From contig JAKEGJ010000029.1 of NCBI GenBank assembly GCA_022627495.1, forward strand, positions 42,408-106,407: 64,000 nt of DNA, read 5' to 3'. Position 1 is the stretch's first letter. Every line of letters starts with the position of its first letter. Position numbers and translations under genes: made by a program. Shown here piece by piece: positions 21,723 to 45,129 of this stretch. The stretch comes from Candidatus Micrarchaeota archaeon. GTDB lineage: Archaea; Micrarchaeota; Micrarchaeia; Anstonellales; Bilamarchaeaceae. The notes beneath the pieces were generated by a model. The model did not search any database, was not told where the DNA came from, and saw nothing but the letters and a program-made list of their open reading frames with translations.

Positions 21723-21724
21723 GT

Positions 21725-21871
21725 TCACTTAGTCCGTATGCCATCCTTAATCAATTGCTCTTTTTCCTCACCGGTAAGTTCCTCTTTATTTACTAATTTC
21801 CTTGTAATCTCCTGGTATCTGCCTAGTTTTCGTTTTATGTTACCTATTATGTATGCCTCGTCGCCGTACAT
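21725..21871 (-). CDS. 48-aa ORF, third gene of the Argonaute operon
   Basis: Manual translation MYGDEAYIIGNIKRKLGRYQEITRKLVNKEELTGEEKEQLIKDGIRTK. Starts 4 nt after the helicase stop, with GGGGTGA as RBS. Confidence 0.55.
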   Translation of the reverse strand: MYGDEAYIIGNIKRKLGRYQEITRKLVNKEELTGEEKEQLIKDGIRTK

Positions 21872-21875
21872 GTAT

Positions 21876-24536: not shown

Positions 24537-24557
24537 AGTATCACCTTAACCTCATCT

Positions 24558-26846: not shown

Positions 26847-26871
26847 CTTTTCACCGTTCAAACTAAGGAAT

Positions 26872-26920
26872 CCGATATATTTAAAGTTATTTTACTTAAT
26901 AAGTTTAATAAATTTAATAA
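26872..26920. promoter_or_regulatory. Divergent promoter region with three TTAATAA repeats at 9-bp period
   Basis: TTAATAA at 26896, 26905 and 26914, and TATA-like TTTAAATATA on the minus strand, between ago and the DUF6293-type gene. Confidence 0.5.
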
Positions 26921-26932
26921 CCGGGTAAGCGG

Positions 26933-27661
26933 ATGAAAAACGTCAGACTTAGAGTCCATATAGCACCCCTCGGGTTCGAAATAGACAGAATCGTCTTACC
27001 ACTTCAAGAATTGAAGGCAGATAAGGTTTGGCTATTGACCCACAGTAAGGGGGACCAGGCATCAGCCTATCGTGAAAAGGTGATTAGCCTCCTGGAGAAG
27101 GCGGATATACGTCATGAGCTTGCCGAGTGCGACATAACGGATCTTTATGATGTGCTCCGAACCTTTAGATTGATAATCGAGAAAGAAGCTGAGAATGACA
27201 TTTTCATAAACGTATCATCCGGTTCGAAAATCGAGGCAATCGCCGGAATGATGGCCTCAATGATTTTCAAAAACGGCACCCAGATAACCCCATATTATGT
27301 CGTCCCTAAAAAATATCTCGTTGAACCCGAAGGAATCCCTCTCACCGAAGGTGTTGAATCCATTAATGCCCTTCCAGAGTACCGAATGGAACAGCCCAAA
27401 AAGCAGCTCCTTGACGTCCTAAAACTTATTGATCAAGCTGGGGGGGCAATATCGAAAAAAGACCTTATCGAAGAGGCAGAACGGCGGGGATTGATAGTTG
27501 TAGGGGGAAGGAATCCTACCCAGTCAAAATATATCAGCCTAAACAAGAATTATCTCGAACCGCTTCAAAGCTGGAAGCTTGTAAAAATTCAAAAGGATCG
27601 GCGCTGGAAAAACATTTTACTAACGGACGAGGGGAGAAACATGTTACGGTTCTTAGGGTGA
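26933..27661 (+). CDS. DUF6293/HFX_2341-type regulator: CARF-like Rossmann domain plus wHTH
   Basis: RVHIAPLGFEIDRI, ADKVWLL and INVSSGSKI (CARF-like), with C-terminal wHTH ending LTDEGR. Confidence 0.8.
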   Translation: MKNVRLRVHIAPLGFEIDRIVLPLQELKADKVWLLTHSKGDQASAYREKVISLLEKADIRHELAECDITDLYDVLRTFRLIIEKEAENDIFINVSSGSKIEAIAGMMASMIFKNGTQITPYYVVPKKYLVEPEGIPLTEGVESINALPEYRMEQPKKQLLDVLKLIDQAGGAISKKDLIEEAERRGLIVVGGRNPTQSKYISLNKNYLEPLQSWKLVKIQKDRRWKNILLTDEGRNMLRFLG

Positions 27662-27711
27662 TTACGATTAAGAGGTCTATAATTTATAAATTTGGGATGT
27701 AAGTATTTTTT

Positions 27712-28776
27712 ATGCAGATTGTGAAAAGTATCGTATTCCGTAAGCTTACAGATGCCGATTTCTTTCACATCAATAAACCTGCTGGAACTGAAACGGGGGG
27801 TGGGGGGCAGTCCTATATCGATATATCGACCTCAGCCGTTACCTTGAATAATTGGAAGGAGTTTTTTCACGGAATAACTCCTTTTCAAAGAAGTGGGCGA
27901 ATAGGTTGGAAAGTACCCATCCATAGTTTAGGGACTAAAACGCCTGCTCAAGAAATTACTATTGCGGAACGTCGTGATACTAGTGTCAGTATCCGTGAAC
28001 AAAAACTATCCAGCAGAGAAAGTAATCGAGTATATGCATGGCATCCAGACTATACAGATTTTCCAAAACCCACCAATCCATCGGAGAAAGAGCATATCTA
28101 TGATCTCCGTATCTATATCGTAAAATTAGAGAATGGAGAATACTGGGCAGGATGGTTGAATAGAAGTCGTCCTGAACCAAACTGGTCGGTGAATAAAGAT
28201 CTCAATGAAATTTTCCTGAAAGATGAGGGTTATATCAAATTTAACGGAAATACTCTTTTTGAGGAAGCTGATTCTGAATGGTCATTTAGAATAGCACCCG
28301 CAACCGCCACCCAAATTACCGATCCAATTGTTCCTACAACTGAGTTAGAACGAAAAATTGATGATAGAATATTATTTGATGAAGATGAGGGCGAAACTGA
28401 AAATAATCCTCCGGTGATTAAAGAGGTCGTCAGGAAAATAAGAATAAGAAATACCAAAGCAGTTAAACAACTTAAACAATTATACGGGAATAAATGTCAA
28501 ATATCGGGAGAAATATATACATTTCAGAAGAAAGATGGCGAACTCTATTCAGAAGCACATCATCTAATCCCATTGGGTGAAGGGGGGGCCGATTCAGCAC
28601 ACAACATTGTGATATTAAGCCCACTCCTCCACCGCATGCTCCATAACGCAAAAGTCGAGAATCTAGACCTTAGAAATATCAAGGATAACAAATTAACAAT
28701 AAAAATTAATGGAAAGGATTATACTATTACTTGGCATCCCGATCATGCGAAAATTGTGGAACAATTTAACCAGTAA
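27712..28776 (+). CDS. HNH endonuclease, probable restriction enzyme
   Basis: RN...V..LK..Y..KCQI, YSEAHHLIPLGEGGAD..HNIVILSPLLHRMLH. Convergent with two MTases. Confidence 0.8.
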   Translation: MQIVKSIVFRKLTDADFFHINKPAGTETGGGGQSYIDISTSAVTLNNWKEFFHGITPFQRSGRIGWKVPIHSLGTKTPAQEITIAERRDTSVSIREQKLSSRESNRVYAWHPDYTDFPKPTNPSEKEHIYDLRIYIVKLENGEYWAGWLNRSRPEPNWSVNKDLNEIFLKDEGYIKFNGNTLFEEADSEWSFRIAPATATQITDPIVPTTELERKIDDRILFDEDEGETENNPPVIKEVVRKIRIRNTKAVKQLKQLYGNKCQISGEIYTFQKKDGELYSEAHHLIPLGEGGADSAHNIVILSPLLHRMLHNAKVENLDLRNIKDNKLTIKINGKDYTITWHPDHAKIVEQFNQ

Positions 28777-29839
28777 AAAGGTGGAATAGATATTCAGTTA
28801 CGTGCTCTTCAGCCTTTTCATTCCTACTCTTAAACCGTTTATGTTTGAATTCTTTTACTGAGATATCGCCAAAAGATTTGAAAAATGACATAAGTTGCTC
28901 TTTAGTAAGAAGCCCATCGCTGCTATAACTTATAAGAAAGTGTTTGCAATCCATCTCTGTGATTATCTTTGTAAACGCTCCACGGATTTTGATTTTCGAA
29001 CAAAAATCAGAGTACTCATCTCGCCAAGGTCTCAAACCACTTTTTCCAATTGCTGAGGGTTCGTCCTCCTTTGCTATCGTTTCAAGCAGATGGTAATTAG
29101 CCGCATATTGTCTTTTGATATAAGGGGGATCAATGTAACACGTATCTGCTTTGATGTCCTTGGCCAGTTCTTCTGCATGTCCATGTTTGACATCATGGCC
29201 GTCAAGTTTACCTCCTTTTTCAAAATTTGTTGGTGTAAGTTTTAACGGAACTCTCGCTCGTTGCACGAATTTAGATAAGTAATGGCCATACGTTCCAGCG
29301 ATATTTGCTACGTCATTGGATGCTAATATTAGGTCATGAATGAGCAAGGAATGCTCAATATCTGTCAAATCCCCGTTCATCTTCGCTTCTTTTATGAATG
29401 CTCTAATCGCATCAATTTTTTGAGCATTTTCTCCTGTGAAATATTTTCGTGGTTCAAATCCATTTTGTGGTTTGCCATCTGAACTGAACTCACGCCAAAA
29501 AAAACCCTTTATCCCTTCCAAATTATTTAGCGTATATATCATTTGCAAATAACCCGATTCATCTCCTAAAAATTGTTGTTTACTTTCAGATAAGTATTTC
29601 TTAACTCGTTCAAACCTTGGGGGGATTTGAAGGAAAAGTTTAGCTTTAGTAAGTAGGCATGCTTGGAGCATAACGTCGCAAGCAATTACTCGATATCCTC
29701 TTTTTCTTAGTTCAACTGAAATTGCACCTGTGCCACACATCAAATCTACTACTGTTCCATTTGGAGGGGTTACCCTACTCACCTCCTCTAGTATTCTATC
29801 ACTTATCTTCTTTTTTGCCCCGATATAACGGTATCCCAT
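28766..29839 (-). CDS. DNA adenine methyltransferase (alpha class, D12/FokI-like)
   Basis: RYIGAK, DLMCGTG, YIDPPY, QYAANYH and ISYS motifs. Confidence 0.9.
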   Translation of the reverse strand: MGYRYIGAKKKISDRILEEVSRVTPPNGTVVDLMCGTGAISVELRKRGYRVIACDVMLQACLLTKAKLFLQIPPRFERVKKYLSESKQQFLGDESGYLQMIYTLNNLEGIKGFFWREFSSDGKPQNGFEPRKYFTGENAQKIDAIRAFIKEAKMNGDLTDIEHSLLIHDLILASNDVANIAGTYGHYLSKFVQRARVPLKLTPTNFEKGGKLDGHDVKHGHAEELAKDIKADTCYIDPPYIKRQYAANYHLLETIAKEDEPSAIGKSGLRPWRDEYSDFCSKIKIRGAFTKIITEMDCKHFLISYSSDGLLTKEQLMSFFKSFGDISVKEFKHKRFKSRNEKAEEHVTEYLFHLFTG

Positions 29840-29848
29840 GAATAGCCC

Positions 29849-31618
29849 TTACATTGTTTTTCTAAAGATTTCTTCAGTATCAATTTTTTTGAGTTCTCTG
29901 ATAGGAAGAAGTTCGTCTGATTCATTTATTGCATTGAATATTATTTCATAATCCTTCTTTGTGAGCGAAAACAACTTAGCGATAAAATATTCTATTTTGG
30001 CATCGGTTTCATCATTTGGTTTTTTCCCATTCTTTAATATTGGGCGAAGTAACTTAGTTATCCTATTTTTTATCTTGATATTCTCTTTATTTTTAAGATT
30101 TGGTAGAGGTAAATTGGCAATCTGTGATTGGGTAAGATACGGGTGTGATCTCCATTCCAATTCTCCAAATGCTTTAATTAGATAGAAATAGTACGCTCGT
30201 GAATTCAATAATCCGATGTAGAACTCTAAATCATCGAGTTCCATTTTTGATTTAACGATATATACGACCTGGCTTGTGTAAGAATCGCTATAATCGAGTG
30301 CCGCAGTAATGCCGACCCCTGTCTTTCGAATAAATATTTTAGGACTTCTATACAGTTCTGGTTCTTTGTAATTAATCCCCCGGAACCCCAATTCAATATA
30401 TTTTGAAGGTGAAGTAGAATACCGCTTCAGATCACCCCCTCTTATAAGACTTGCAGACTTTTTTGTTTTCTTATTTGTTACAATTGTCTCTTGCTTTGCG
30501 GTGGCGGTGTTGATTTTTTTCCCGCAATACGGACAATTAGTGATTGGTTTTTCCGACAATGGCATCCACAATGAGCAGTAATTGCAAGCAAATACTTTAC
30601 CTGAACTACTTAACTCTACCCCTCTTGATATTGTGAGAACATCGTCTAATCTGCCATTCGCAGGTTTCAACTTCTTTATCACATTGGTTTCTGTTTCTTT
30701 AAGGTCTATGTCGAAGCGTTGAAAGTCATTATTCCTAAATCGTTGTTGGGGCACTATATGAATATTTTTTCTCTCTGATTCCTTGAAGCTCAATTGTCCC
30801 TTCAATATCTTGTTCCTATCATTACTCGTGAGTCGAAAACAATCAACTTGACCTAACTTTTTTGGTGGAGCGTTTCTGCATATAATAACAACACAAGATC
30901 TATTCACTCGCGGAAATAGTTTTTCGCCTAAACGTGCAATGAATCTTATCTCTGTTTTTTCAATTAAAACATTGCGAAGAATGCTCTTCTCGTGATTCAG
31001 TATAGAATCCGGTACGATGAATGCAAAGTACCCTCCCTTCTTAACAATTTTCAATGCCAGCTCCATAAAAAGTTCAAACGAATCAAATTGCCCCTGTAAT
31101 GTTTTGAAATCCGCAACTCTAAGTTGTTTTTTATACTCGGACAAATCTGCGCCCCACGGCGGATTTGTTATTAAAAGATCAAAACCCTCCGTTACCCCGG
31201 TTTTTTTGAAGATAGTTTTCCATCCCGAAGTTAGAGATGTATTTTTTATAGGGCAAAGTGCATTTGAATTTAGAAGCCGAAACTTCATTTGATTTGAGTC
31301 CAATTCTGTTAATCTATTTTTACTGGCTTCAATGGCATTGCAATCGATGTCAATACCAGAAAAAATGATAGAATCACGTTTCATTATTTCTTTTTTTATC
31401 TCAACTGCAACTTTCTCAAGAAGAACCCCATCTCCAACTGCAGGATCAATAATACTGATACTCCTTTTGTTTTTGATTTGGCCATCCTTTTCCACATACT
31501 CTACGAGCTTGTGAGCAACATACTCCGCAAGATTATCCGGAGTATATACTGCTCCATTTTTTTTGACGAGTTTAGAATCGTCAGAAACATTCTCAACTAA
31601 CTTAGCAAATGAGTTCAT
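29849..31618 (-). CDS. N6-adenine DNA methyltransferase (gamma class, TaqI/Eco57I-like) with zinc ribbon in the TRD
   Basis: GAVYTP, IDPAVGDG, GIDID and NPPW; CNYC...CPYC; TaqI_C-like GLLNS...LP. Confidence 0.9.
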   Translation of the reverse strand: MNSFAKLVENVSDDSKLVKKNGAVYTPDNLAEYVAHKLVEYVEKDGQIKNKRSISIIDPAVGDGVLLEKVAVEIKKEIMKRDSIIFSGIDIDCNAIEASKNRLTELDSNQMKFRLLNSNALCPIKNTSLTSGWKTIFKKTGVTEGFDLLITNPPWGADLSEYKKQLRVADFKTLQGQFDSFELFMELALKIVKKGGYFAFIVPDSILNHEKSILRNVLIEKTEIRFIARLGEKLFPRVNRSCVVIICRNAPPKKLGQVDCFRLTSNDRNKILKGQLSFKESERKNIHIVPQQRFRNNDFQRFDIDLKETETNVIKKLKPANGRLDDVLTISRGVELSSSGKVFACNYCSLWMPLSEKPITNCPYCGKKINTATAKQETIVTNKKTKKSASLIRGGDLKRYSTSPSKYIELGFRGINYKEPELYRSPKIFIRKTGVGITAALDYSDSYTSQVVYIVKSKMELDDLEFYIGLLNSRAYYFYLIKAFGELEWRSHPYLTQSQIANLPLPNLKNKENIKIKNRITKLLRPILKNGKKPNDETDAKIEYFIAKLFSLTKKDYEIIFNAINESDELLPIRELKKIDTEEIFRKTM

Positions 31619-31969: not shown

Positions 31970-32821
31970 ATGTCTAAGCATCTTGTTGTGATCGGCGATT
32001 GCCGGAACATGGCTGAAGTGGAAGATGGCTCGGTCCAGCTCGTAGTAACAAGCCCGCCTTATTTCAATGTCAAGGACTATGGCATTGACAACATCGGCTC
32101 GATTGACGAGTACGACGTATATCTGCGAGCCATGCGCCAGGTTTTCAGCGAGTGCTACCGGATTCTGGAAGATGGCCGTTATTGCTGCATTAACGTCTCG
32201 GACGTGATAAGCGGCGAGTCGAAATACCCGATTCCGTCCCATTACGTTAGCATTCTCCAGCGGGCCGGATTCGCCTACCGTGATGATATTGTCTGGAAAA
32301 AGCCAAGCGGCGTAGGGGCCAAGGCTAGCGGAGGGAGCGGCAAGCGGTTCGGCACGCTCATCCAGAACCCCTTTCCGATGTACTATTACCCGAACAACAT
32401 CTACGAGCATATCCTCATTTTCAGGAAAGGAAAGTTCGATTTCAAGACGGTCAGCATGCAAGAGAAAGAAAAGGCCCGAATCGACATCGGAGAGGCAAAG
32501 AGGCGCTGGAGCAACGATATCTGGGAGATGGTCCCGGAAATCAAAAACAAGTACAACCGGGACACTCACCCGGCCATGTTCCCGGAAGAGCTGCCCGAAG
32601 CGCTTATCCGACTTTACACGTACCCGGATGAAACGGTCCTTGACCCGTTCCTCGGCAGCGGCACTACAACCAAGGTAGCCCGCCAGCTCGAGCGCAACTC
32701 GATAGGGTATGAGATCAACCTCGCCTACCTGCCGATAATCGAAGAAAAGGCGGGTTTTGAGGGGCCGGATCCGGATTTTCGCGTTATCATAAGGCAAAAT
32801 GGTGATATGCATGAGGACTAG
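31970..32821 (+). CDS. Site-specific N4C/N6A DNA methyltransferase (beta class)
   Basis: VTSPPY precedes HPAMFP and DPFLGSGTT. Confidence 0.92.
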   Translation: MSKHLVVIGDCRNMAEVEDGSVQLVVTSPPYFNVKDYGIDNIGSIDEYDVYLRAMRQVFSECYRILEDGRYCCINVSDVISGESKYPIPSHYVSILQRAGFAYRDDIVWKKPSGVGAKASGGSGKRFGTLIQNPFPMYYYPNNIYEHILIFRKGKFDFKTVSMQEKEKARIDIGEAKRRWSNDIWEMVPEIKNKYNRDTHPAMFPEELPEALIRLYTYPDETVLDPFLGSGTTTKVARQLERNSIGYEINLAYLPIIEEKAGFEGPDPDFRVIIRQNGDMHED

Positions 32822-33122
32822 GGAGTTGTTATTGGGAATTCTGCTGGCGGGACTTTGTATCGCTGCTCCGCTCAGTATACCCGCCGATCAGCCGATATGC
32901 AACCTTTACGGCATAATCAAGGTCATCGGTACAATTGTAGGTGTGCTGATGGCAGCTTATGCGGGCTTCATACTGGCAAGCACCCACGAGCTGACGGAAA
33001 GGAATGCGGCCAAGGCATTGCTTAGCGGAGTTGCGATAGGCCTGATAATCATCTGGCTAGCTCCGCTCATCGTAACCAATCTGGTAGGGGCAAGCGGCAG
33101 CGTTTGCGGGTGGACATCGTGA
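32811..33122 (+). CDS. TrbC/VirB2-like pilin
   Basis: Signal plus two TM helices, and ERNAAKALLSGVAIGLIIIWLAP pilin-like pattern. Confidence 0.7.
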   Translation: MRTRELLLGILLAGLCIAAPLSIPADQPICNLYGIIKVIGTIVGVLMAAYAGFILASTHELTERNAAKALLSGVAIGLIIIWLAPLIVTNLVGASGSVCGWTS

Positions 33123-33343
33123 TTGACCTGTCAGCGATAGCCACCTCAATCAGGCTGGTCGCGATTTTCTTTTCTGTCGTGATTATGGGCTATGCAGGTC
33201 TGATAATCGCGACAAGCAGCGACCCGATGGCCAGGAATGAGGGCAAGGAGATAATAGCTGGGGTTGTAATCGGCCTATCGATTCTGTTCCTCGGGCCGGT
33301 TATCTCATCCGCTTTGACAGGAGGTGTTTACTGTCCTGCCTAG
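33119..33343 (+). CDS. Second TrbC/VirB2-like pilin
   Basis: YAGL..ATS.DP..RNEGKEIIAGVVIGL. Paralogous to the previous gene; GTGA overlap. Confidence 0.7.
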   Translation: MIDLSAIATSIRLVAIFFSVVIMGYAGLIIATSSDPMARNEGKEIIAGVVIGLSILFLGPVISSALTGGVYCPA

Positions 33344-34838
33344 ATTTTTCCTCCTGCTTCTGGTTCCTTTGGCCTTTGCTGGCTACCAGCATCATGACTA
33401 CGTAAGGGATAGCGATTATCATGGTCCCACGCCAGTCAACGATACGTTAATCGACAACTGCCCGGCGCTAGGGATAGACCAAAGCGTATGTGATGCGGCA
33501 AATAGCACCAATCTTACAAAAACCGCGAAAAAAGCGCTTATCCTTGCAGCCTTGAATCCTGATGCCACCCTACCGGATTATGGGTTTATTGATGCCTGGA
33601 ACGCCGGGATGGGTTTTGGGAAATACCCGCCATTCGGTGTAGCTCCTATAAGCAGCGGTTCGATACGGGATGCCTGGGTAAAGATAGTCGATATTTGGCC
33701 TTCGGTCATTGAAGGCAATGAGACGTTATTGAACGATACGGGCAAGATTAGGGCCAGGTACGGGTTTACCTTCGTTTTGCCTGATAAAACGGCTTCGGGG
33801 GACTGTAAAACCGGTTATAGCGCCGATGGATACAACTACAGCCTTGAGATCCTCCAGAACGGGACAAATCTCAGCGAAAACAACGAAAAAGACGCTGATT
33901 TCAGACTTAACGAAAGCATCGGTCTCTTCCAAGCAAACCTTTCGATTGCCAGCGGCTATAAGGCGCGTCATTATGTCTGGGTAACCCACTGTGACGATGA
34001 CGACGATTGCCATGAAACGTGCGAATACGCATATACCCAGAATGTTACGGATCAGCTGAACCCATCTGATTCCAAGACCGGGCAGCTCTACAATTTCAGC
34101 TATGCCGCCAAATCGATGGTGGATGCTAACCATAGCGGCCTTCTGGACTTCTGGTTTTCATATAACGTTAGCGATGATTTCTCTGAGATAGTTTTGGAAA
34201 GCGGGAATTCGAACATACGAATTCGGGGAACGGAGTACAGGCTAATCGCGCTTTATGAACCGTACAACATCCTTACCTACGACGCGATACCAAAGAATAG
34301 CTCGGCTTTTCCCTATTACGCCCCGATTATCTACGACAATCAGACCGAAAACTTGACTTCGGTTCAAAGAACGATACGAACGTTTATCCCATACTCCGAC
34401 AATTGCACAATTGCCTTTCAATCGCATTTCAACAGGACAATAATCCCGCAATTCTGCAATGTAACGAATCAGACGCCGATTCTCAACGTCTCGATTGCCG
34501 AACGCCTTGACGATTCAACTGTATTGGACGTTTTATTCTATGATAACACAACCGGGCAGCCATTCCCAAACAAGCGGTTAGCGGTCAGGTTTGACGGTCA
34601 AGAGAAGAATATCACAACCGGCCCATCCGGCAAGGCAAAGATTACCATCCCGATTTCTGCTGGACTTGTGAGGATCTCATTCATTACCGACCTTGAAGCC
34701 AAGAGCGCTGAAACGATAGTCGTTCTTGCCCAACAGCCGGACATTAACGAACAAACCCTGCTAGGCTTGGTCCTATTGCTGCTCGCCCTGCTTCTCGCTT
34801 ATCGGATAGGTACGAGGTGGATTAATGCAATGGCTTAG
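33324..34838 (+). CDS. Secreted, C-terminally anchored glycoprotein in the transfer operon
   Basis: Signal peptide, many N-x-S/T sequons, a CDDDDDC loop and a C-terminal TM segment. Confidence 0.7.
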   Translation: MFTVLPRFFLLLLVPLAFAGYQHHDYVRDSDYHGPTPVNDTLIDNCPALGIDQSVCDAANSTNLTKTAKKALILAALNPDATLPDYGFIDAWNAGMGFGKYPPFGVAPISSGSIRDAWVKIVDIWPSVIEGNETLLNDTGKIRARYGFTFVLPDKTASGDCKTGYSADGYNYSLEILQNGTNLSENNEKDADFRLNESIGLFQANLSIASGYKARHYVWVTHCDDDDDCHETCEYAYTQNVTDQLNPSDSKTGQLYNFSYAAKSMVDANHSGLLDFWFSYNVSDDFSEIVLESGNSNIRIRGTEYRLIALYEPYNILTYDAIPKNSSAFPYYAPIIYDNQTENLTSVQRTIRTFIPYSDNCTIAFQSHFNRTIIPQFCNVTNQTPILNVSIAERLDDSTVLDVLFYDNTTGQPFPNKRLAVRFDGQEKNITTGPSGKAKITIPISAGLVRISFITDLEAKSAETIVVLAQQPDINEQTLLGLVLLLLALLLAYRIGTRWINAMA

Positions 34839-35781
34839 GGTTATTTTGTTCCTCGGGGTAGTCTTGGGGTGTGCGTTCTCACAATCGGCAAGCATACAGA
34901 TACCGGCCCCCACGTGCAACAGCTCGGCTGACCTCCTAACGACAATCAGCACTATGCCCCAGTGCGTTTCTGAGGCGATATTCAATACCATGGTAGAGGG
35001 ATTCATGTACTCGGCGCAGCAGTTTTACGGCCTCTCCATGACCCTCCTGACTGCATCCCCGGACATCAACTGGTTCTGCCAGCCATATCAGAACGTGATG
35101 GCGATTATCGAGACCTTTTACACAATAATCCTAATGGGTTTGGGAGCCTACTATATCCTCCATTCGACCGAAGTGGATGGCCGGGTCCGGTCAAAGATAT
35201 GGCTGAAAAACATCTTTTTCATGGTGGTGGCACTTGCCTTTTCATTCAATCTTTTCGGGATGCTGCTGGACCTTAATCAGAGCATCTGCACGACGATTTA
35301 CTCTTCCGTCAGCTCGAATATCTTCGACATAAACGCTCAGCTTTCGAACATGATATTTGCTCTTATCGTGGTATCCAGCTTTTGCGTGATGAACGGCTTA
35401 ACATTCGCAACGCTCATGGCCCGCTACATGCTGATTCCGTTTCTTCTTCTCCTCTTCCCACTGTCGATTTTCCTATATTTTATCCCTTTTACGCGGAACT
35501 GGGGCGCTTACCTGTTCAAGTTCATTGCCCTCGTTGTTTTCATGACAACGATTGATGCAATCCTGCTACTCGGGCTTTCGTATCTTTTCAATTCGCCGGA
35601 CCCGATATTATCCGGTACGCTGAAGACCTTCGGCCTGATGATCGGCTTCGGACTGATTGGGATAGTCAACGCGATAATTTACCTTATCGCCGTGATTTCG
35701 GTGGTCTCAATGGCACTCAAGACGGTTGAATCCTTAGCCTCGATTGCCATGAAGATAGCGATAATGCTCTCCTTCCTGTGA
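34825..35781 (+). CDS. Polytopic membrane protein, VirB6/TrbL-like
   Basis: Several TM helices, R..LI.FLLLLFPL...LYFIPFTR pattern, and position between the pilins and VirB4. Confidence 0.7.
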   Translation: MQWLRVILFLGVVLGCAFSQSASIQIPAPTCNSSADLLTTISTMPQCVSEAIFNTMVEGFMYSAQQFYGLSMTLLTASPDINWFCQPYQNVMAIIETFYTIILMGLGAYYILHSTEVDGRVRSKIWLKNIFFMVVALAFSFNLFGMLLDLNQSICTTIYSSVSSNIFDINAQLSNMIFALIVVSSFCVMNGLTFATLMARYMLIPFLLLLFPLSIFLYFIPFTRNWGAYLFKFIALVVFMTTIDAILLLGLSYLFNSPDPILSGTLKTFGLMIGFGLIGIVNAIIYLIAVISVVSMALKTVESLASIAMKIAIMLSFL

Positions 35782-35785
35782 TTCT

Positions 35786-38700
35786 ATGGCCTACGACATT
35801 CCAGACGAGATAAAATACCGGGAGAAGATAATCGCCAACCTGGACAGCAGGCAGCTCATCTATGCTGCCCTTTTTGGATTTCTCGCATTCCTGGCTTTCA
35901 GGCTGCCGGTTGAGGGGGAGCTGAAATTCGCACTGCCGACGCTCATATCGCTGACAGGTGTGGGTTTCATATTCCTCAATTTGGGAGAGCGCATTAGAGA
36001 GGTATTCAGTTTTTACTTCGCCTTCAGAAAAGCAGAGTATAAGGAATCGGCAGCGCAGAAATTCTTCGAAGTCAAATCAGTATCGGATAATGTCATCCAT
36101 TTAGACAACGGCAAGAGGCTGGCAGTTCTCGAAGTCCAGCCAGTGAACTTCAGGCTTTTGGACGACGGAAGAAAACTGGCGCTCATATCGAATTACAAGG
36201 CATTTTTGAATCAACTAATGACACCGGTTCAAATCCTCGTAAGGACAAAATCGGTCAGCCTTGAAGACTATTTTAACAAGACAAACAGCAGGCGAATCAA
36301 GGATGGGCTTCTCCTCGCGCTCTATTCTGATTTTCGCATTTTTGAGGAAGATTTCCTTTCGTCTAACAGCATCAAGGAGAGACAGTTCTACCTTATCGTT
36401 CCATTCACAAAGAATACAATTCCAGACAAGCAGATACCGCCCTTGAAATTGCTTGAAGATATAATGAGTATCACTCAGGAGAAACTAGAGGCTTGCGGCC
36501 TTGAAATGCGCAGGTTAAATGATGCTGAAATAACCGACTTATTGTATTCCTACGGCAGTAGCTCTGAAGATAACGAAGAAAGGCCAGACGACTTGTTTAA
36601 TTCGATAGTTGGCCGTATCACATCTGGTATAAACAGAATCAAGACCCTCAACAGGCACTTCCCGGGGTACGCATGGCAGATTAAGCTTGGCCCTGAGAAC
36701 GTTACACCGCCACTGCTTAGGAACACGAAAAAAACACCAGAAATATTTAGCTTGGGTAAAGCTCGGGGCGCAAGCAGTTTTCAAAGCATAGGCGATATGG
36801 GCTTATGCCCCCCTCCGAGCACGATATTGCAGTTCGCTGGCTCAGATATTTTGCATCCGAAGCAAAACATCAAGATAACGGGAAGGCAAATCGGATATAA
36901 AATCCCAAGAAATCGCATGTGCCCCCTGGGTTCTGGAAAATTGGTCTGGCCGGAAAGCTTCGGAGGTTGGATAAAAGATGACGTCGAGCCCGAACCCGGT
37001 AACTTCAGGCAGGATATAACGCCTTCATTTGACATCCGCAAGAACTGCGCTTATGTAAACGAAGAGATCCACCGTATCGTAAAGGTGTCCGGGTATCCCC
37101 GTAAGGTTGAAGATGGCTGGCTCCAGGCATTTCTCACAAAAAACGAAAACTACGATATAATCATGCACATCGACCCGGCATCGATAAACGCCAGGCTTGT
37201 CTATCTTCACAATCAGATAATACAGCAAACGAGCGACCTTGTTATGAGCACTTCCAAAGGCACGCCAAATCCTGCCCTAGAGATAAAGAAAGCCGATACG
37301 ACGAGGGTATATGACTCCCTTTACAAAGGGGAGGAGAAAATGTTCGACGTCTCCATTTACCTAGACAATCATGCCCCCACTATCCCCGACCTCGGCCTGT
37401 TAACCGAAAAATGCAAATCGAACCTCAACGCGCAGATGATGGTACCCAAGGTTACGGAGTGGAGGATGGCAGACGGCATAAAATCCACTCTGCCGATAGC
37501 GTTCAATCCTCTAGCTGCCGGGCGGGATTTTCTTACAAACTCGCTTGCAGCCTCTTTTCCCTTTATTTCCCCTTCAAATACGAAGAAAAATGGCATTCTG
37601 TTTGCCCGTGAAGCCGATACTATGACACCCCTGTTTCTGGATTTCAAAGGCATGAACAACAAGCATTTTTTCATAATCGGGATAAGCGGATCAGGCAAGA
37701 GCTACACAAGCAAATACCTTATGATGCAGCAGCTCTTTGCGGAGGATACAAAAGTCTTTATCCTGGACCCTAATGGCGAATACGTGCCGTTATGCAAAAG
37801 CCTCGGCGGGCAGGTAATCGAGCTATCGCGTGGTTCCCAATCCACAATCAATATCTTCGACCTTGGAGGAAATGATTACAGCGATAAAATGCTAAGCCTG
37901 CTCTCCGCTTTTGACATTATCGTAGGCGGGCTTACAGAGAGCCAGAAAGGGGTTCTGAGCAAGGTTCTTACCCGCGCGTATGCAAGGAAAGGCGTAATCC
38001 ACAGCAGGCCCGAAACGTGGGACCGGGATGCCCCGACCTTCAGCGATGTGCGGGATGCAGCGCTGGAAATCAAGGCCGAGTTCGCAGGTGGTAACGAATA
38101 CCTGAAAGACCCAAGCATCGAAGCCCTTCTCAACCGCATTGAGATGTATTGCCAGAGCGGGCTCTTCGGTTTTCTTGACCAGCCGTCCAAATTGGACGTA
38201 AATAAGGGCTTTGTTTGCTTCGACCTGAGCAAACTGCCTAACGCGGTCAAGAACCTGCTTATGTTTGCCACGCTTGAGATAATACGGCAGGAGATTAGCA
38301 AGGATAAAAAGCCCAAAATCGTGCTGATTGATGAAGGCTGGTCGCTGCTCCGGAGCCGGGAAGTTGCGAACTATATTCTCGAATTTGTCAAGACCTCAAG
38401 AAAATTCAACACGTCGTTGGGGTTTGTTACGCAGGAGATGGAGGACTTGCTACGAAGCAGGACGGGAAAATCCATCCTGAATACGGCTTCGGTCAAAATT
38501 CTCATGAGGCAGAATCCGAGTAATATCGACCTGATTTCTGATACCCTGAAGCTCAACCCTGCCACGAAAGAGTATCTGCTGACGGCACGGAACGGCCACG
38601 GATTGCTATTTACAGAACAGAACGCGTTCAAGTTCTTTGTCAAGGCATCGGACAAGCTGCACGCGCTCATAACAACCAAGCCCGAAGAGCAGGTTCAAAA

Positions 38701-39208
38701 ACCTGAAAAGAAGCCGAAATTGAAGGGAAAAATCAGCCTCGACAAAGGACTGTATCTAAAGAAGGAGATTAGCGAAGACGAGGAAGCTTATCTCCTGCAA
38801 AACGGCTACGAACCTTGTAAGGGGAGGACTTCAAAGGATGGCGGATCAACTTGGTACTTTGTCAAGATTAGGCATAATGAAAGCCAGGAACATGCGTTTC
38901 TCTGCTGGACTACCTATGAAGCCGCAAAAAGGCGATTCGATAACGTAGAAATGAATACGACCCGCTGCGGAGATGTCGTGATAGATACGGGGAGAAAGAA
39001 GATAGCCTTTGAAATCGAGACTGGAGCGAACTTGAAACAATATTCGGATGAGTTTCTTAGACAAAAGTTTCAGCAACTTGATGATGAATTCGATGAGTAT
39101 TACATACTCGTTTCCAAATACAATTTTCAGAAGCGGTATAAACGATATGGAAAAGTAATCCTGAGAAACAAGATAGAAGAAACCCTTGCAGGGATAGGGA
39201 GACAATAA
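35786..39208 (+). CDS. PrgI/VirB3-like + VirB4 ATPase + C-terminal PD-(D/E)XK-like domain fusion
   Basis: N-terminal YDIPDEIKYREKII..L..RQL plus 2 TM. NKHFFIIGISGSGKS, ILDPNGEY, IDEGW, SRKFN and TQ motifs. C-terminal ESQEH...GDVV...AFEIETG. Confidence 0.85.
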   Translation: MAYDIPDEIKYREKIIANLDSRQLIYAALFGFLAFLAFRLPVEGELKFALPTLISLTGVGFIFLNLGERIREVFSFYFAFRKAEYKESAAQKFFEVKSVSDNVIHLDNGKRLAVLEVQPVNFRLLDDGRKLALISNYKAFLNQLMTPVQILVRTKSVSLEDYFNKTNSRRIKDGLLLALYSDFRIFEEDFLSSNSIKERQFYLIVPFTKNTIPDKQIPPLKLLEDIMSITQEKLEACGLEMRRLNDAEITDLLYSYGSSSEDNEERPDDLFNSIVGRITSGINRIKTLNRHFPGYAWQIKLGPENVTPPLLRNTKKTPEIFSLGKARGASSFQSIGDMGLCPPPSTILQFAGSDILHPKQNIKITGRQIGYKIPRNRMCPLGSGKLVWPESFGGWIKDDVEPEPGNFRQDITPSFDIRKNCAYVNEEIHRIVKVSGYPRKVEDGWLQAFLTKNENYDIIMHIDPASINARLVYLHNQIIQQTSDLVMSTSKGTPNPALEIKKADTTRVYDSLYKGEEKMFDVSIYLDNHAPTIPDLGLLTEKCKSNLNAQMMVPKVTEWRMADGIKSTLPIAFNPLAAGRDFLTNSLAASFPFISPSNTKKNGILFAREADTMTPLFLDFKGMNNKHFFIIGISGSGKSYTSKYLMMQQLFAEDTKVFILDPNGEYVPLCKSLGGQVIELSRGSQSTINIFDLGGNDYSDKMLSLLSAFDIIVGGLTESQKGVLSKVLTRAYARKGVIHSRPETWDRDAPTFSDVRDAALEIKAEFAGGNEYLKDPSIEALLNRIEMYCQSGLFGFLDQPSKLDVNKGFVCFDLSKLPNAVKNLLMFATLEIIRQEISKDKKPKIVLIDEGWSLLRSREVANYILEFVKTSRKFNTSLGFVTQEMEDLLRSRTGKSILNTASVKILMRQNPSNIDLISDTLKLNPATKEYLLTARNGHGLLFTEQNAFKFFVKASDKLHALITTKPEEQVQKPEKKPKLKGKISLDKGLYLKKEISEDEEAYLLQNGYEPCKGRTSKDGGSTWYFVKIRHNESQEHAFLCWTTYEAAKRRFDNVEMNTTRCGDVVIDTGRKKIAFEIETGANLKQYSDEFLRQKFQQLDDEFDEYYILVSKYNFQKRYKRYGKVILRNKIEETLAGIGRQ

Positions 39209-39210
39209 TT

Positions 39211-39332
39211 AATTACGAGCTAACCTTGCGTTTTCGCATGAGTTAAGGCGTATCTCCTTCAAATTTGAGAAAATTACGGCCTAAAAACAGGGCGTAATCT
39301 CGCTAAAAAAATTACGACCTCAGTTACGACCT
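39211..39332. repeat. Cluster of short TTACG(A/G)CC-type direct and inverted repeats, candidate origin
   Basis: AATTACGAGCT (~39211), AAATTACGGCCT (39271), inverted GGCGTAAT (39291), AAATTACGACCT (39309) and GTTACGACCT (39323). Confidence 0.5.
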
Positions 39333-39341
39333 CTGCGAACA

Positions 39342-39518
39342 TTAAAGGTCATGCGGCAGCATCGTAGTCCTCCCGTTTGCTGTCGCCCGCTTAGCCGCTC
39401 TATCGAGCATCTGCCGGACTTCCCCATTCAGGGCAGCGTAGAGATCCTTTGAAACGCGGAGCTCGCCCTGCCTGAAAAACGATTTCACTGAGCCCTTTGA
39501 TACAAATCCATCCTTCAT
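39342..39518 (-). CDS. 58-aa histone-fold protein (alpha3-truncated, face-to-face/Bd0055-like class)
   Basis: Manual translation MKDGFVSKGSVKSFFRQGELRVSKDLYAALNGEVRQMLDRAAKRATANGRTTMLPHDL, with L1 RVS and L2 RTT....D motifs. RBS GAGGGG; starts 1 nt after the cdc6 stop. Confidence 0.82.
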   Translation of the reverse strand: MKDGFVSKGSVKSFFRQGELRVSKDLYAALNGEVRQMLDRAAKRATANGRTTMLPHDL

Positions 39519-39519
39519 T

Positions 39520-40587
39520 TCAATCCCCCCTCAATCGGATAATGGAACACCTCGGCCGATTTCCGGCCATCACGTTTTCAATGGAAATGAGGCCTTTCTG
39601 GTCCATTGCCCGCAGATAGTTGCGGATTTGCCGCTTGGTTCGGAGAATTCCCGACCGGAAAAGGGGGTAAAGCTCCGTAGTGGTCTTCTGGCCTTCTTTC
39701 AGAAGGCCATGAATCAAGAGTTCTTCCCTTGACAGTTCGGCCCCAATAAGCCCGATTTCGCGCTTTATGGCTAAAACGTCATTTTTGGATACTTCTGCAA
39801 GTCCCTGATCCTCCGAGCTTCTTGCGGCCCTCCAGAGGATTTCAAGGGCAAAACGACCGCCACCGTGACTTGCTACGCTGATGTCTGCTATCTCCTCTAT
39901 CAGCGAGCTGTCATAAGAGCCAGGCCGTAACCCGGCGGAGGCTCGCTCTTTCAGGAGTGTAAGCAGCTCATCACGAGTGAACTGGGGAATCTCGATTTTC
40001 GTGAACCTGAGGATTTCGCGGGTTTCCTGCGGAAGCTTCGAAAGCACGGCTTCGTTATCCGAGATCCCGATAATGCCGAAATAGACCTTTTCCTCATCCA
40101 GATGGGCGATATTCTGGAGGATACGAGCATCATCGTAATGGATAAGAGCTTCAATCTCATCGAGAACGAGAAGGACGGGTTTCTTCGAGTAGCGCATGAG
40201 TTCCACGATACGGTCGAATATCTCATCGGATGCCCGCCCTCTCCTTGAGACAGGTTCGCCCAATGCGTCCGCGATCTTGGTGAATATGGACATGGAGGTG
40301 TTGTACCGGCAACAGTTGGCATAGATGCACAATAACCTGCGGCTTTCTTCCACCTCTCCTATAGCCCACCTGACTAAGGCGGTCTTGCCCGAACCTGAGG
40401 GACCGGATATGAAGACATTCTCAGAGAGATGGCCTGTCTGAAGGCTGTTCATGGCTGCCAGAACGCTTTCTCCTACAGCTTGCCGGCATCCAAGGTTGCT
40501 TTTGGGATAGAACCGGGGCAAAAGAACTGATTCATCCTGGATTATCCGGTTTTTTGAAGCAATCATCACGACGCTTTGGTGTTCCAT
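39520..40587 (-). CDS. cdc6: Orc1/Cdc6-family replication initiator (divergent, element-borne)
   Basis: GPSGSGKT, YANC, LVLDEIE, L..ILKER-like, sensor GGGRFAL and a C-terminal wHTH. Confidence 0.85.
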   Translation of the reverse strand: MEHQSVVMIASKNRIIQDESVLLPRFYPKSNLGCRQAVGESVLAAMNSLQTGHLSENVFISGPSGSGKTALVRWAIGEVEESRRLLCIYANCCRYNTSMSIFTKIADALGEPVSRRGRASDEIFDRIVELMRYSKKPVLLVLDEIEALIHYDDARILQNIAHLDEEKVYFGIIGISDNEAVLSKLPQETREILRFTKIEIPQFTRDELLTLLKERASAGLRPGSYDSSLIEEIADISVASHGGGRFALEILWRAARSSEDQGLAEVSKNDVLAIKREIGLIGAELSREELLIHGLLKEGQKTTTELYPLFRSGILRTKRQIRNYLRAMDQKGLISIENVMAGNRPRCSIIRLRGD

Positions 40588-40723
40588 CTCCCTCCTCCCG
40601 CTTGATTGTGTTACTTGGAACAGGATTATGGTAATATGTTATATTTATATTTGTCGCTCAAAAAAGGAGACATTTGCTTTATTTTCGACTATTTTATAAA
40701 CATTTGGATACAAATATCTAGAT

Positions 40724-41158
40724 ATGTATGAGATTGATAAGACAGATACAGCTATTATTGGGATCCTGAAGGATAATGCCAGGCTTTCAGTCAGGCAGAT
40801 CTCCAAAAAATGTGGTGTGCCATCAGCAACAGTACATAAAAGAATGCTGAAACTGGAGAACGAAGGCGTTATCGAGAGATATTCGGCAGTGATCAACAAG
40901 GCAAAGCTCGGAAAAGAAACAATTGCTTATGTATTGGTAAGGATAAAGCCGGAAGCCGATTACACGTCGATGATGGAGCAGGTAGAAAAACGGGAAGAAG
41001 TTGAGGATATGAGCGCTTTGGCAGGCCAATTTGACTTAATTCTGAAAATACGTGTCAGGAGCATCCCGGAACTTGATGCTTTTGTCATGCGCTACCTACG
41101 CAAGTTCAAGGAGGTCGCACAGACTCAGACTCTCGTTGTTTTCAGGCACTGGCATTAG
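40724..41158 (+). CDS. Lrp/AsnC transcriptional regulator
   Basis: IDKTD..II..L..NARLS..ISK...TVHKRM.KLENEGVI and GQFD motifs. Confidence 0.92.
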   Translation: MYEIDKTDTAIIGILKDNARLSVRQISKKCGVPSATVHKRMLKLENEGVIERYSAVINKAKLGKETIAYVLVRIKPEADYTSMMEQVEKREEVEDMSALAGQFDLILKIRVRSIPELDAFVMRYLRKFKEVAQTQTLVVFRHWH

Positions 41159-41172
41159 TTTTTGATAGTCCT

Positions 41173-41448
41173 TTACATGTTGTCCATCTTGAAGAGCACT
41201 CTCGCGCCTTTTACTTCTTTCTTAAGTTTCGGAGCGTTCTGGATTATTTCGATAAGCTCCAGGTATCGCTTTACAGTGCGCTTGTGGAGCCTTGTCGTAA
41301 CGACGATAGAGTGGATATTGGCGGATTTCTTGGACAGGATAGCCATGACCCGACCGACATCTTCCAATATTTTAGCCACGGAACAAATAGGCAGTTCCCA
41401 CCTAAATACCTTGAATAACACAGTGTATTTTTCCCTTCCCATCAACAC
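41173..41448 (-). CDS. Small wHTH-like protein (start uncertain)
   Basis: NIHSIVVTTRLHKRTVKRYLELI HTH-like segment. Confidence 0.55.
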   Translation of the reverse strand: MLMGREKYTVLFKVFRWELPICSVAKILEDVGRVMAILSKKSANIHSIVVTTRLHKRTVKRYLELIEIIQNAPKLKKEVKGARVLFKMDNM

Positions 41449-43701: not shown

Positions 43702-44919
43702 CTAAACAATGGCCTTCTCCAATCCCATCTCGAAAATCTTCTTTAGCATCATGTCCTTGAATTCGTTATCCTGCATCAGCCGGTTCATGATGCTGTCGGT
43801 CGCCTGCCGATCCTTCTCCAGCGATACTATGAGGGTTTCATCCAGCGGAAGCCCGCAACGGGTACAATACTTGGATGCCGGGGAATTGTGCTCCTTGCAC
43901 CTCTGGCAGTTCTTCGCCTTTATCTTTTCCTCTTGGCTAACCTCATCGTGAACTAGCCCCTGAATCTTCAGAAGGGCGTTATCTACGTCCCTTCCGCTCA
44001 TATGGACGTAAGTCGAAGCCATATCCGAACCCTGAACCCAGCCAAAATGCTCCTTCATTTGGGCTTCCGTAAGCTTGCTGGCCAAGGCGGTTGCCCGAGA
44101 ATGGCGGAATAAGTGGGGGTGGATATGCTTCTTTATCCCGGCCTTAATCGCCAGATTTCGCAATAGCTTGTAAACCGAACGGTGGTCCATGCACTCAATC
44201 ATATTCTTGGTTTTCCATTTCGGAGAGCGCGGGGGCCAAAGCGGGGCTTTCGGATCGTCCTTTCTCCTGTAATTATCGACCCACAAGGCCAAGGCTGGCG
44301 CCGAGCTGATTACCCTTACCCGCCTATCCCCGGTTTTCCCTGAAACGCGCAGGACTGCCCCGTATTGGTCGAATTTGACGTTTTGCATACTGAGGGTAAG
44401 CAATTCCCCTATCCGACACCCGGACTCGTATAAAACCAGTACAAATGCCTTATCCCTCGGATTTTCTGCCTCATTGACAATCCTGAGTATTTCGTCCTCT
44501 GTCAAAAGGTCTTCCGGTAGCTTGTGTTTCCCATTTTTCAGCTTCGGCTTCAGCCAGCTTATCTCCGGAGGGAATGTCTCATCATTCCCTTTGAGCCACT
44601 TATAGTACATTTTGAGGACGATTTTGTAATCAAGACGGGTATACTCCGAATACTTCGGATTGGTTTCAAGCCCGCCTACCAACGCGATAAGATTCTCCTT
44701 GGTGGCATTTCCAAACGGCTTATTGAGCCATGCAGCAAGGAAACGAAGGCAGTAAACGACCTTTGCGACCCGGCCATGTGACGCGCCTTTTGCAAGGCGC
44801 ACTTTCGAAAAAGAGATTATGGACTCCTTGTTCTCCTTACTGACTCCCGGATCCTTATTGAGGTTCTCTATCGCCAGTTCCAGGCGTCTGGAATAGTTGT
44901 ATAGACCGAATCCATCCAT
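43702..44919 (-). CDS. int: Tyrosine integrase with C-terminal zinc ribbon (SNJ2-like archaeal family)
   Basis: ESGCRIGE, GKTG.R, HPHLFRHSRAT, HFGW, Y.H and CQRC...CTRCG. Adjacent to the tRNA 3' end. Confidence 0.93.
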   Translation of the reverse strand: MDGFGLYNYSRRLELAIENLNKDPGVSKENKESIISFSKVRLAKGASHGRVAKVVYCLRFLAAWLNKPFGNATKENLIALVGGLETNPKYSEYTRLDYKIVLKMYYKWLKGNDETFPPEISWLKPKLKNGKHKLPEDLLTEDEILRIVNEAENPRDKAFVLVLYESGCRIGELLTLSMQNVKFDQYGAVLRVSGKTGDRRVRVISSAPALALWVDNYRRKDDPKAPLWPPRSPKWKTKNMIECMDHRSVYKLLRNLAIKAGIKKHIHPHLFRHSRATALASKLTEAQMKEHFGWVQGSDMASTYVHMSGRDVDNALLKIQGLVHDEVSQEEKIKAKNCQRCKEHNSPASKYCTRCGLPLDETLIVSLEKDRQATDSIMNRLMQDNEFKDMMLKKIFEMGLEKAIV

Positions 44920-45010
44920 GATTTCACTCCGGCTGGAGGTCTATTTTAGGGTTCGTGCCCCTTTGGGCAGAAATCTGCCCCAAGGTTACAGACCCGAACC
45001 AAAAAGATGA

Positions 45011-45129
45011 TGCAGGAGGAAGGATTCGAACCTTCGAAGGCGCTGAGCCAGAGGATTTCCCAGGCTGCATTCGGCTCGGGAATGTTAGGCTCTTAAGTCC
45101 ACCGCGTTTGACCGCTTCGCTACTCCTGC
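45011..45129 (-). tRNA. tRNA-Leu(UAA) with a 35-nt intron at 37/38 (45057-45091)
   Basis: Acceptor GCAGGAG/CTCCTGC-A, D arm GCGAAGCGGTCAAACGC, loop CT-TAA-G|intron|A, long variable arm, T arm GAAGG-TTCGAAT-CCTTC. No encoded CCA. Confidence 0.92.

Follow-up and report, generated by a model that had tools for sequence, protein, structure and literature searches.

Face-to-face (FtF) histones, which are truncated in helix α3, have been recognised only recently. The crystal structure that defines them, as set out in section 7 of PMC11390915, is that of HTkC (TK1040) from Thermococcus kodakarensis (9F2C), a protein reported to wrap DNA round a toroidal tetramer (10.64898/2025.12.06.692711). For HLp of Leptospira perolatii (9QT0/9QT1), PMC12701072 describes a tetramer on which about 60 bp of DNA are wrapped nonspecifically. 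Extra FtF copies are carried on plasmids by Halobacteria (PMC11390915, section 7), and FtF-type proteins with a predicted tetramer are encoded by viral genomes (PMC13681535). Here we describe an FtF histone of 58 aa encoded directly behind a gene for the replication initiator Orc1/Cdc6, on an integrated element of ~26.5 kb. The element lies in a stretch of 64,000 nt from a Candidatus Micrarchaeota archaeon (GCA_022627495.1, contig JAKEGJ010000029.1, positions 42,408 to 106,407 of the forward strand), hereafter the window.

The window histone resembles HTkC in length (58 versus 58-59 aa), in its signature residues and in its predicted tetramer, and its R44 aligns with HTkC R45, which has been called critical for tetramer formation (10.64898/2025.12.06.692711). 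The two differ in setting: HTkC is chromosomal, highly expressed and encoded by a stand-alone gene, and its organism has canonical histones besides, whereas the window histone is encoded on a mobile element, second to Orc1/Cdc6 in their operon, and no canonical histone was found in its host genus. By analogy, HLp is the best experimental model for how the window histone might act, although HLp is a chromatin protein of a bacterial chromosome, bears an N-terminal tail and is not linked to any replication initiator. The viral proteins share the mobile genome with the window histone but bear lysine-rich N-terminal tails of 5-40 aa (PMC13681535). In a tblastn search 71 plasmid records with an FtF histone were found, the listed best places being 43-60% identical; in all eight haloarchaeal plasmid loci inspected the gene stands alone, with Orc1/Cdc6 adjacent in none.

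The element itself has counterparts in the integrative and conjugative elements (ICEs) of Nitrososphaeria (PMC6563490, PMC5797428) and in the Ced/Ted machinery (PMC9905601), which are described as sharing with it a tyrosine integrase, a tRNA target, att repeats, a VirB4-like ATPase, VirB2-like pilins, a polytopic membrane protein and sometimes Cdc6/Orc1. The word 'histone' does not occur in PMC6563490 or PMC9905601, and PMC5797428 mentions host histones only; in the family described here, unlike in these elements, the histone is part of the conserved core. Likewise, a full-text literature search, supplements aside, brought up no paper in which a histone is connected with Orc1/Cdc6 on an archaeal element. 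Already known, then, are FtF histones, including plasmid and viral ones, and archaeal integrative-conjugative elements with Cdc6; what appears to be new is a Cdc6-FtF histone operon conserved as the core of a family of elements whose hosts are free of histones.

The histone and its coupling to Orc1/Cdc6

The features at and around the pair are as follows.

39520..40587, minus strand: cdc6, first gene of the operon, encoding a divergent Orc1/Cdc6 AAA+ protein of 355 aa with AAA+ domain, Cdc6 lid and a C-terminal region of ~77 aa presumed to be a winged helix
39524..39532, minus strand: Shine-Dalgarno-like purine run GAGGGGGGA, within the final cdc6 codons, 5 nt before the histone ATG
39342..39518, minus strand: FtF (α3-truncated) histone gene, 58 aa, stop codon at 39342-39344 (homology, fold model, dN/dS)
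39209..39341: convergent intergenic spacer of 133 nt with five GGTCGTAA-like 8-mers in both orientations and a T7 run; candidate origin or transfer site
40588..40723: AT-rich divergent intergenic region of 136 nt between cdc6 and the lrp gene, with inverted repeats 40640-40654 / 40710-40724; it presumably holds promoters and is an alternative origin candidate

A listing of open reading frames (ORFs) places the 58-aa ORF directly after the 355-aa Orc1/Cdc6 ORF, both on the minus strand. The sequence hallmarks by which the initial annotation had taken this ORF for a histone are present in its translation, i.e., RVSKD at residues 21-25 and A..RA..NGRTT....DL at the C-terminus. In a phmmer search against all PDB sequences, the ORF matched HTkC (9f2c_A) at E 1.4e-6 and 9qt0_A, i.e., the DUF1931 protein HLp, at E 1.5e-3, followed at E about 0.8 by 8fvx and 8cmp, two histones of Bdellovibrio. 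The FtF signature given for Haloferax D4GZE0 in section 7 of PMC11390915, i.e., R41, N45, R47, T49 and D54, recurs with the same spacing as R44, N48, R50, T52 and D57, and the assignment to the α3-truncated FtF type made in the annotation is borne out by this match. Across an alignment of 88 sequences, R44, R50 and D57 are invariant and N48 and T52 are at least 90% conserved; the alignment comprises the ORF and 87 of 159 proteins, all single-domain forms of 53-66 aa, with doublets, longer tailed forms and some near-duplicates omitted. Ten close homologues (76-95% identity), all of them metagenomic, keep the five signature residues throughout, and a profile built from the ORF and these ten matched 735 protein clusters at E<=1e-3 and 24 at E<=1e-10 in a search of 1.84 billion representatives, so that the homologues on which the annotation had made its proposal depend do exist. 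The dN/dS of the histone, calculated for the window and three metagenome copies, is 0.10-0.56. No match to the 58-aa histone was found in phage records or in a profile scan of viral contigs, and a profile scan of genome contigs returned only one weak bacterial locus.

Family models gave a divided answer. The comparison with histone and DUF1931 families proposed in the annotation was positive for relatives of the ORF, with PF00808 matching 17, DUF1931 17 and Histone 8 of the 88 aligned sequences (E<=0.01), and negative for the window's ORF. For the latter the sole Pfam line was DctP at E 0.1 (12.4 bits, under the 23.4-bit cut-off), with no PF00808 or DUF1931 (PF09123) match in Pfam at E<=1, and NCBIfam gave no match. 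The Pfam histone models are too narrow for this branch, and a Pfam match is no defining feature of FtF histones.

The predicted structure has the histone fold that had been proposed. From the 88 sequences, AlphaFold2 built a model with a pLDDT of 92.4, helices at residues 8-16 and 24-47, and a short C-terminal helix at 55-57; it superseded a model from 11 close sequences, with a pLDDT of 67.5. In a Foldseek search against the PDB with this model, HTkC (9f2c_A) came first (TM 0.88, rmsd 0.9 Å, 38% identity over 56 columns), and the top nine chains were all HTkC, HLp or HBb, at TM 0.86-0.91; HLp (9qt0/9qt1) scored TM 0.90-0.91 (9qt0_A 0.90) and HBb 0.86-0.90. Nucleosomal and archaeal HMf-type histones ranked lower (TM 0.52-0.77). 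When four copies were co-folded, as the annotation had suggested doing, the ipSAE of the one copy scored was 0.88/0.88/0.87 against 0.01 for the best control, with a partner pLDDT of 91-92 and at least 98% of contacts common to the runs. The ipSAE mark is passed by 20 of 30 proteins solved as one-chain pairs and by 1 of 23 solved as single chains, a calibration only roughly valid for four copies. Contacts between dimers in this model involve residues 43-44, 47-48, 50, 54 and 56-57, i.e., the signature residues. Because the HTkC and HLp tetramers are already solved, we take the four-copy result as likeness rather than proof.

Since homology, signature residues and fold model agree, we file the 58-aa ORF as an FtF histone and, judged from its sequence, as a real gene. 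The notion of a chance open frame, for which its length of merely 58 codons and the absence of a Pfam match might speak, has negligible probability against significant matches to solved histones, the 735 related clusters, a confident predicted histone fold, a dN/dS well below 1 and a Shine-Dalgarno run and position after Cdc6 that are kept down to 39% histone identity.

The spacing to cdc6 is as tight as had been claimed: the cdc6 stop codon TGA occupies 39522-39520 and the histone ATG 39518-39516, which leaves the single base 39519 as a 1-nt gap. The histone thus appears to be the second gene of a two-gene operon with Cdc6, and it would be translated by coupling or re-initiation from the Shine-Dalgarno-like run within the last cdc6 codons. 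In 24 further pairs, similar runs of GGAGG, GGTGG or GGGGG stand ahead of the histone start codon.

The 355-aa protein carries a Walker A motif (GPSGSGKT) and a Walker B motif (LVLDEIE), and matches the Pfam families Cdc6_lid (45.9 bits, cut-off 27) and AAA_22 (46.3 bits). Its AAA+ region extends to about residue 205 and its lid covers residues 211-271, with 84 residues remaining; among the best 25 of its 27 Pfam matches there is no Cdc6 C-terminal winged-helix family. The full-length model TIGR02928 scored 141.9 bits (cut-off 181.3), with only residues 15-278 aligned, and two further Orc1/Cdc6 copies in the same genome score higher, at 346 and 208 bits. Compared with its counterparts at L003, L004 and L005, the window Cdc6 is a mosaic: the AAA+ domains are 62-66% identical, the C-terminal domains 82-86% and the histones 88-95%. 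Because both the C-terminal block of Cdc6 and the histone are more conserved than the AAA+ domain, they seem to travel together, and the contrast between domains suggests recombination inside the cdc6 gene.

Conservation and history of the pair

The annotation had called for a survey of cdc6-histone pairs in mobile elements and chromosomes. A profile seeded with the FtF histone was searched against a sample of 401 Micrarchaeota genomes and matched in 94 of them, including 7 of 28 other genomes in the host genus, a tally that counts the unpublished genome G029, which enters no other result. All 44 places other than the window's own with E<=1e-15 were taken as strong loci, and 22 of these are linked to Cdc6, so that the tight coupling seen in the window recurs in half of them. 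Upstream of the histone gene the 44 loci have:

20 of 44: Cdc6_lid protein immediately upstream, same strand
1 of 44: Cdc6 visible by tblastn only (L037)
1 of 44: Cdc6 one small ORF farther upstream (L015)
4 of 44: class II aminoacyl-tRNA synthetase
2 of 44: sigma-70-like protein
1 of 44: PIN protein
1 of 44: type I restriction subunit
14 of 44: neighbour without family match or on the opposite strand

The gap between the two genes lies between -19 and +27 nt in 19 of the 21 directly adjacent pairs of other genomes, the exceptions being L027 (-50 nt, start uncertain) and L048 (+282 nt, Cdc6 frame broken). In three close metagenome loci, with Cdc6 proteins 69-71% identical to that of the window, Cdc6 and histone overlap by ATGA in all three, and one of these loci runs on into the same 1140-aa ATPase. 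Among 20 pair neighbourhoods of up to 20 kb, a VirB4-like ATPase was found in 17, an integrase in 13 and at least one of the two in 18. The usual order is methylase, two pilins, 504-aa protein, 318-aa protein, ATPase, histone-Cdc6 on the opposite strand, Lrp regulator, 91-aa protein and integrase. In the reverse direction, with the ATPase as the seed, 46 of the 401 genomes gave a match. Four ATPase loci with usable flanks had no Cdc6 that could be found (a fifth was cut by the contig end), and L100, L101 and L102 among these are also without a histone. These results suggest that the Cdc6-histone pair is a conserved replication/maintenance module shared by a family of elements in this phylum of small-genome archaea.

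Within the host genus there appears to be no other protein of this fold. PF00808 at E<=1e-3 matched in none of 40 host-genus genomes, 16 of which are at least 90% complete. In the genome of the window itself, PF00808 gave nothing better than E 0.2 and DUF1931 no match; the window copy is its sole FtF match, and Alba is present. Every FtF copy placed within the host genus is linked to Cdc6. Histone-fold proteins in the host genus are thus, as far as these genome sequences go, found only on the element.

Phylogenies of the two proteins are consistent with an old association. The histone tree (47 rows, 58 columns) is weakly resolved; in it, 19 histones not linked to Cdc6 form one clade (support 97/95) that tracks host taxonomy, and all 26 Cdc6-linked rows fall outside this clade of chromosomal FtF histones. 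The label of linkage to Cdc6 changes three times on the tree, compared to a mean of 15.8 when shuffled. In the Cdc6 tree (43 rows: 21 histone-linked, 20 chosen unlinked and the two other copies of the window's genome), all 21 histone-linked proteins lie within one 100/100 clade of 34, and canonical Orc1 and eight other paralogues lie outside it. No histone-like ORF was found beside Cdc6 at any of the 22 unlinked loci. The pair thus seems to be of long standing in a single Cdc6 lineage, in which the histone was lost at least twice. Nested in the clade of 34 are 12 host-family paralogues, i.e., the second copy of the window's genome (L041, G000:C8:5857-6867) and L108-L118. The tree suggests that this second Orc1/Cdc6 paralogue of the host family derives from the element lineage, and it looks like a domesticated element initiator that has lost its histone; consistent with this, a match to the element's Cdc6 is present in 26 of 28 genomes of the genus.

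FtF histones were also seen in other contexts. In L012, L016, L026 and L035, which belong to four other families, a chromosomal FtF histone lies 37-140 nt downstream of a class II aminoacyl-tRNA synthetase; this context is conserved housekeeping, unlike that of the element copies. At L029 (G113:C8) and L057 (G199:C56), both in family f16, the gene for a ~380-400-aa sigma-70 protein precedes a chromosomal-type FtF histone, with sigma-70 regions 2 and 3 in both proteins and region 4 in that of L029 only. In archaea such a neighbour is unexpected, and either the contig is bacterial and mis-binned or the gene was transferred, as far as this context suggests. In haloarchaeal plasmids the FtF gene is usually divergent from a small helix-turn-helix/PadR regulator, and xseA or xseAB (exonuclease VII) follows within 3.5 kb in five of the eight loci inspected (L007, L008, L104, L105 and L106).

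A proposed partner for the initiator, and the alternatives

The annotation had offered several alternative roles for the histone, i.e., packaging of the excised circle, help in initiation, silencing of cargo and shielding of DNA from the element's nucleases. Because the histone is linked to Cdc6 in an operon, is present and absent together with it, and occurs in histone-free hosts, we favour a role tied to the initiator: we see an even chance that the histone serves the element's Orc1/Cdc6 as an architectural partner that wraps DNA. The 58-aa protein would form dimers that pair in vivo into a DNA-wrapping tetramer. After excision of the element, Cdc6 would recognise the element's origin via its winged helix, and the sequence-unspecific tetramer, possibly in contact with Cdc6, would wrap about 60 bp beside this origin. 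The wrapping would bend or strain the DNA in favour of initiator assembly and loading of the host replisome, and the element would bring this architectural factor along because its host has nothing comparable. Bacteria offer a working analogy in small architectural DNA proteins that aid an initiator or are brought by a plasmid, i.e., IHF/HU at iteron origins and plasmid-borne H-NS-like proteins; the folds are unrelated, and the bacterial factor is usually the host's and not co-translated with the initiator.

In a more far-reaching form, the pair would be a minimal 'initiator plus nucleosome' origin machine, self-contained and with the FtF tetramer as an obligate subunit that wraps the origin for a single Orc1/Cdc6 to open, in cells otherwise lacking histones. 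This is possible, if on balance doubtful. If true, it would be a prokaryotic mobile-element precedent for the pairing of the origin recognition complex with histone-wrapped DNA, and the second Orc1/Cdc6 of the host family would be a domesticated copy of such a machine, without its histone. More generally, the window pair allows a test of a histone-fold tetramer as a replication/maintenance cofactor as opposed to bulk chromatin.

Several observations weigh against the initiator-tied role. The L103 element has a histone without a recognisable Cdc6. Inside the Cdc6 clade of 34 stand the unlinked L119 and the nested clade of 12 chromosomal paralogues, itself supported at 100/100; since all of these are without a histone, this type of Cdc6 can work without one. 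The pair survey was seeded from histones and made within this phylum sample, the metagenome-assembled genome of the host is 81.6% complete, and the four-copy prediction may owe its pass to the solved HTkC and HLp structures rather than to the 58-aa protein itself. The remaining points concern the short repeats in the spacer behind the histone gene. Seven repeat copies follow VirB4 in L100, which has neither cdc6 nor histone; five follow VirB4 in L103 and none follow the histone there; and the repeat motif co-varies with VirB4, i.e., L005, with a VirB4 92% identical, has the same motif, and L004, at 57%, a different one.

These repeats had been considered as an iteron-type origin for Cdc6 and the histone. 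In the window, five 8-mer copies were reached by 1 of 300 shuffles and by 4 of 453 window tiles, and in related elements this spacer contains other, element-specific repeats, present four to six times. In long spacers these lie near the end of the ATPase gene; in equal 200-nt windows taken after the histone gene, the count exceeded that of every one of 60 shuffles at only 3 of 10 loci. The C-terminal domain of Cdc6 changes little (82-86%) across copies with differing iteron motifs. The candidate was therefore downgraded, as the repeats stay with the end of the VirB4 gene even where an element has neither cdc6 nor histone. Because the iterons track the end and the identity of VirB4, no cis site is tied to the Cdc6-histone pair.

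The alternative that survives best is that of a general chromatin protein or silencer of the element, in which the histone coats the integrated or excised DNA, compacting it or repressing transfer and cargo genes, much as bacterial plasmid-borne nucleoid proteins do, and the operon with Cdc6 merely times its expression. FtF histones bind DNA of any sequence and, in other organisms, are chromatin proteins of high abundance, as described in PMC11390915 and the papers on HTkC and HLp; haloarchaeal plasmids carry them as stand-alone genes, L103 has one without Cdc6, and the window histone is more conserved than the AAA+ domain of its Cdc6. A general coat, however, needs no strict coupling to one gene, and yet 19 of 21 gaps fall within -19 to +27 nt; three elements of the same backbone that are without Cdc6 are also without a histone, and a histone-free host has no pool of its own to spare or to mimic. 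We consider this explanation unlikely, though it deserves to be kept in view.

A factor for transfer or establishment, which compacts or protects DNA during conjugation-like transfer or on arrival and acts at the iterons by the VirB4 end, is improbable. The histone gene ends 130-460 nt from the end of the VirB4 gene in most elements, with element-specific repeats between the two, the repeats track VirB4, and the backbone includes two pilins, an eight-span membrane protein and the VirB4-like ATPase. Against this, the histone is co-translated with Cdc6 whereas the transfer genes are on the opposite strand, VirB4 and repeats occur without a histone in L100, and no relaxase, coupling protein or other DNA-processing partner was recognised in the element.

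Very improbable is an Orc/Cdc6-based defence system of the 'HerA/FtsK capture' type predicted by Aravind and colleagues, in which invading DNA would be restricted by Cdc6 together with a nuclease and the HerA-like ATPase, and the histone would be an accessory. Mobile neighbourhoods that couple Cdc6 to HerA/FtsK ATPases and to restriction endonuclease (REase) and winged helix-turn-helix (wHTH) domains are described in PMC10853773, the 1140-aa ATPase matches DndH/HerA models in PADLOC, and the element is rich in defence cargo. The reading was rejected on domain architecture: capture systems have an inactive REase inserted in Cdc6, whereas the 355-aa protein consists only of AAA+, lid and ~77-aa C-terminus, with no nuclease family match in Pfam and no REase inserted between the AAA+ core and the C-terminal wHTH. 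In addition, neither Cdc6 nor histone has a PADLOC match at 1e-5, the ATPase gene shares a conserved transfer-type block with those for pilins and membrane proteins, and the Cdc6 clade includes a paralogue present in 26 of 28 genomes of the genus.

The integrated element and its remaining genes

That the histone is encoded on a mobile element, as the annotation had held, is supported by an integrase, by att repeats at a tRNA target and by relatives in which the site is empty. From the repeats, the target and the empty sites, we place the element at 18474-45018 (~26.5 kb), inserted in a tRNA-Leu gene; the GC content is 0.36-0.52 within the island (about 19 to 45 kb) and 0.57-0.65 outside it. 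Its features are:

18474..18491: attL core, direct-repeat copy of 18 nt, 16 of 18 bases agreeing with attR
18614..31618: variable cargo, with an MNT-like nucleotidyltransferase, a radical-SAM protein, a UvrD-PD-(D/E)XK protein and a prokaryotic Argonaute (pAgo), a CARF-like wHTH protein, a type IV REase-like protein and two methylases
31970..39208, plus strand: conserved transfer-type module of methylase, pilins, 504-aa and 318-aa proteins and ATPase
31970-32821, plus strand: N4/N6 DNA methylase
32799-33122 and 33104-33343, plus strand: two VirB2-like pilins (T4SS_pilin 36.2 bits, and a second pilin ORF)
within 31970..39208, plus strand: 504-aa anchored protein, and 318-aa protein with eight transmembrane (hydrophobic) segments
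35786-39208, plus strand: VirB4/TraG/HerA-like ATPase, 1140 aa (TraG P-loop 93.6 bits)
40724..41158, plus strand: Lrp/AsnC-family regulator, kept beside cdc6 in related elements (Pfam, neighbourhood comparison)
41173..41448, minus strand: 91-aa conserved element protein with no family match (neighbourhood comparison)
41686-43620: GmrSD gene
43702..44919, minus strand: tyrosine integrase (Phage_integrase 72.2 bits)
45001..45018: attR core, overlapping the 3' end of the tRNA gene
45011..45129, minus strand: target tRNA gene with a long variable arm, UAA anticodon (Leu, from alignment) and 37-nt intron (Rfam tRNA 46.9 bits, E 7.8e-9)

With this gene content the element appears to be integrative and of the conjugation type. 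Its site is empty in two genomes of the same genus, G244 and G378, in which the flavin-reductase gene left of the island directly adjoins the right-flank genes with one att-like sequence; the G244 sequence follows the left flank of the window up to the repeat and the right flank beyond it. A 30,362-nt public contig, possibly from the same sample, covers 37000-51430. A chimeric contig as the origin of the island was ruled out by this contig across the right junction together with the att, tRNA and empty-site evidence. ARAGORN found no tRNA at the att site, where Rfam found the tRNA-Leu at 45011-45129, and two raw-read runs yielded only tRNA of other organisms. A scan for promoters and terminators of the sigma-70 type, a model that does not apply to archaea, gave background numbers only.

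The att site, the tRNA target and the backbone define the core of a conjugation-type element family in DPANN archaea that was previously undescribed. We know of few mobile elements and of no genetic tools in these archaea, and a cassette of cdc6, histone and their origin could be the starting point for a shuttle vector.

Some smaller observations concern the element's other genes and its target. The VirB4/HerA-like ATPase has two N-terminal membrane segments and ~190 extra C-terminal residues without a family match, in which a D...ExE nuclease-like motif can be discerned by eye. At 21876-26861 on the minus strand, the pAgo gene (Piwi; PprPIWI/pAgo in PADLOC) adjoins that for the UvrD helicase fused to a PD-(D/E)XK nuclease, and the CARF-like wHTH regulator and the type IV REase-like protein are encoded beside this pair. 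Upstream of the tRNA gene lie two more partial copies of the 5' half of tRNA-Leu (45194-45219 and 45266-45294), which may be scars of earlier integrations.

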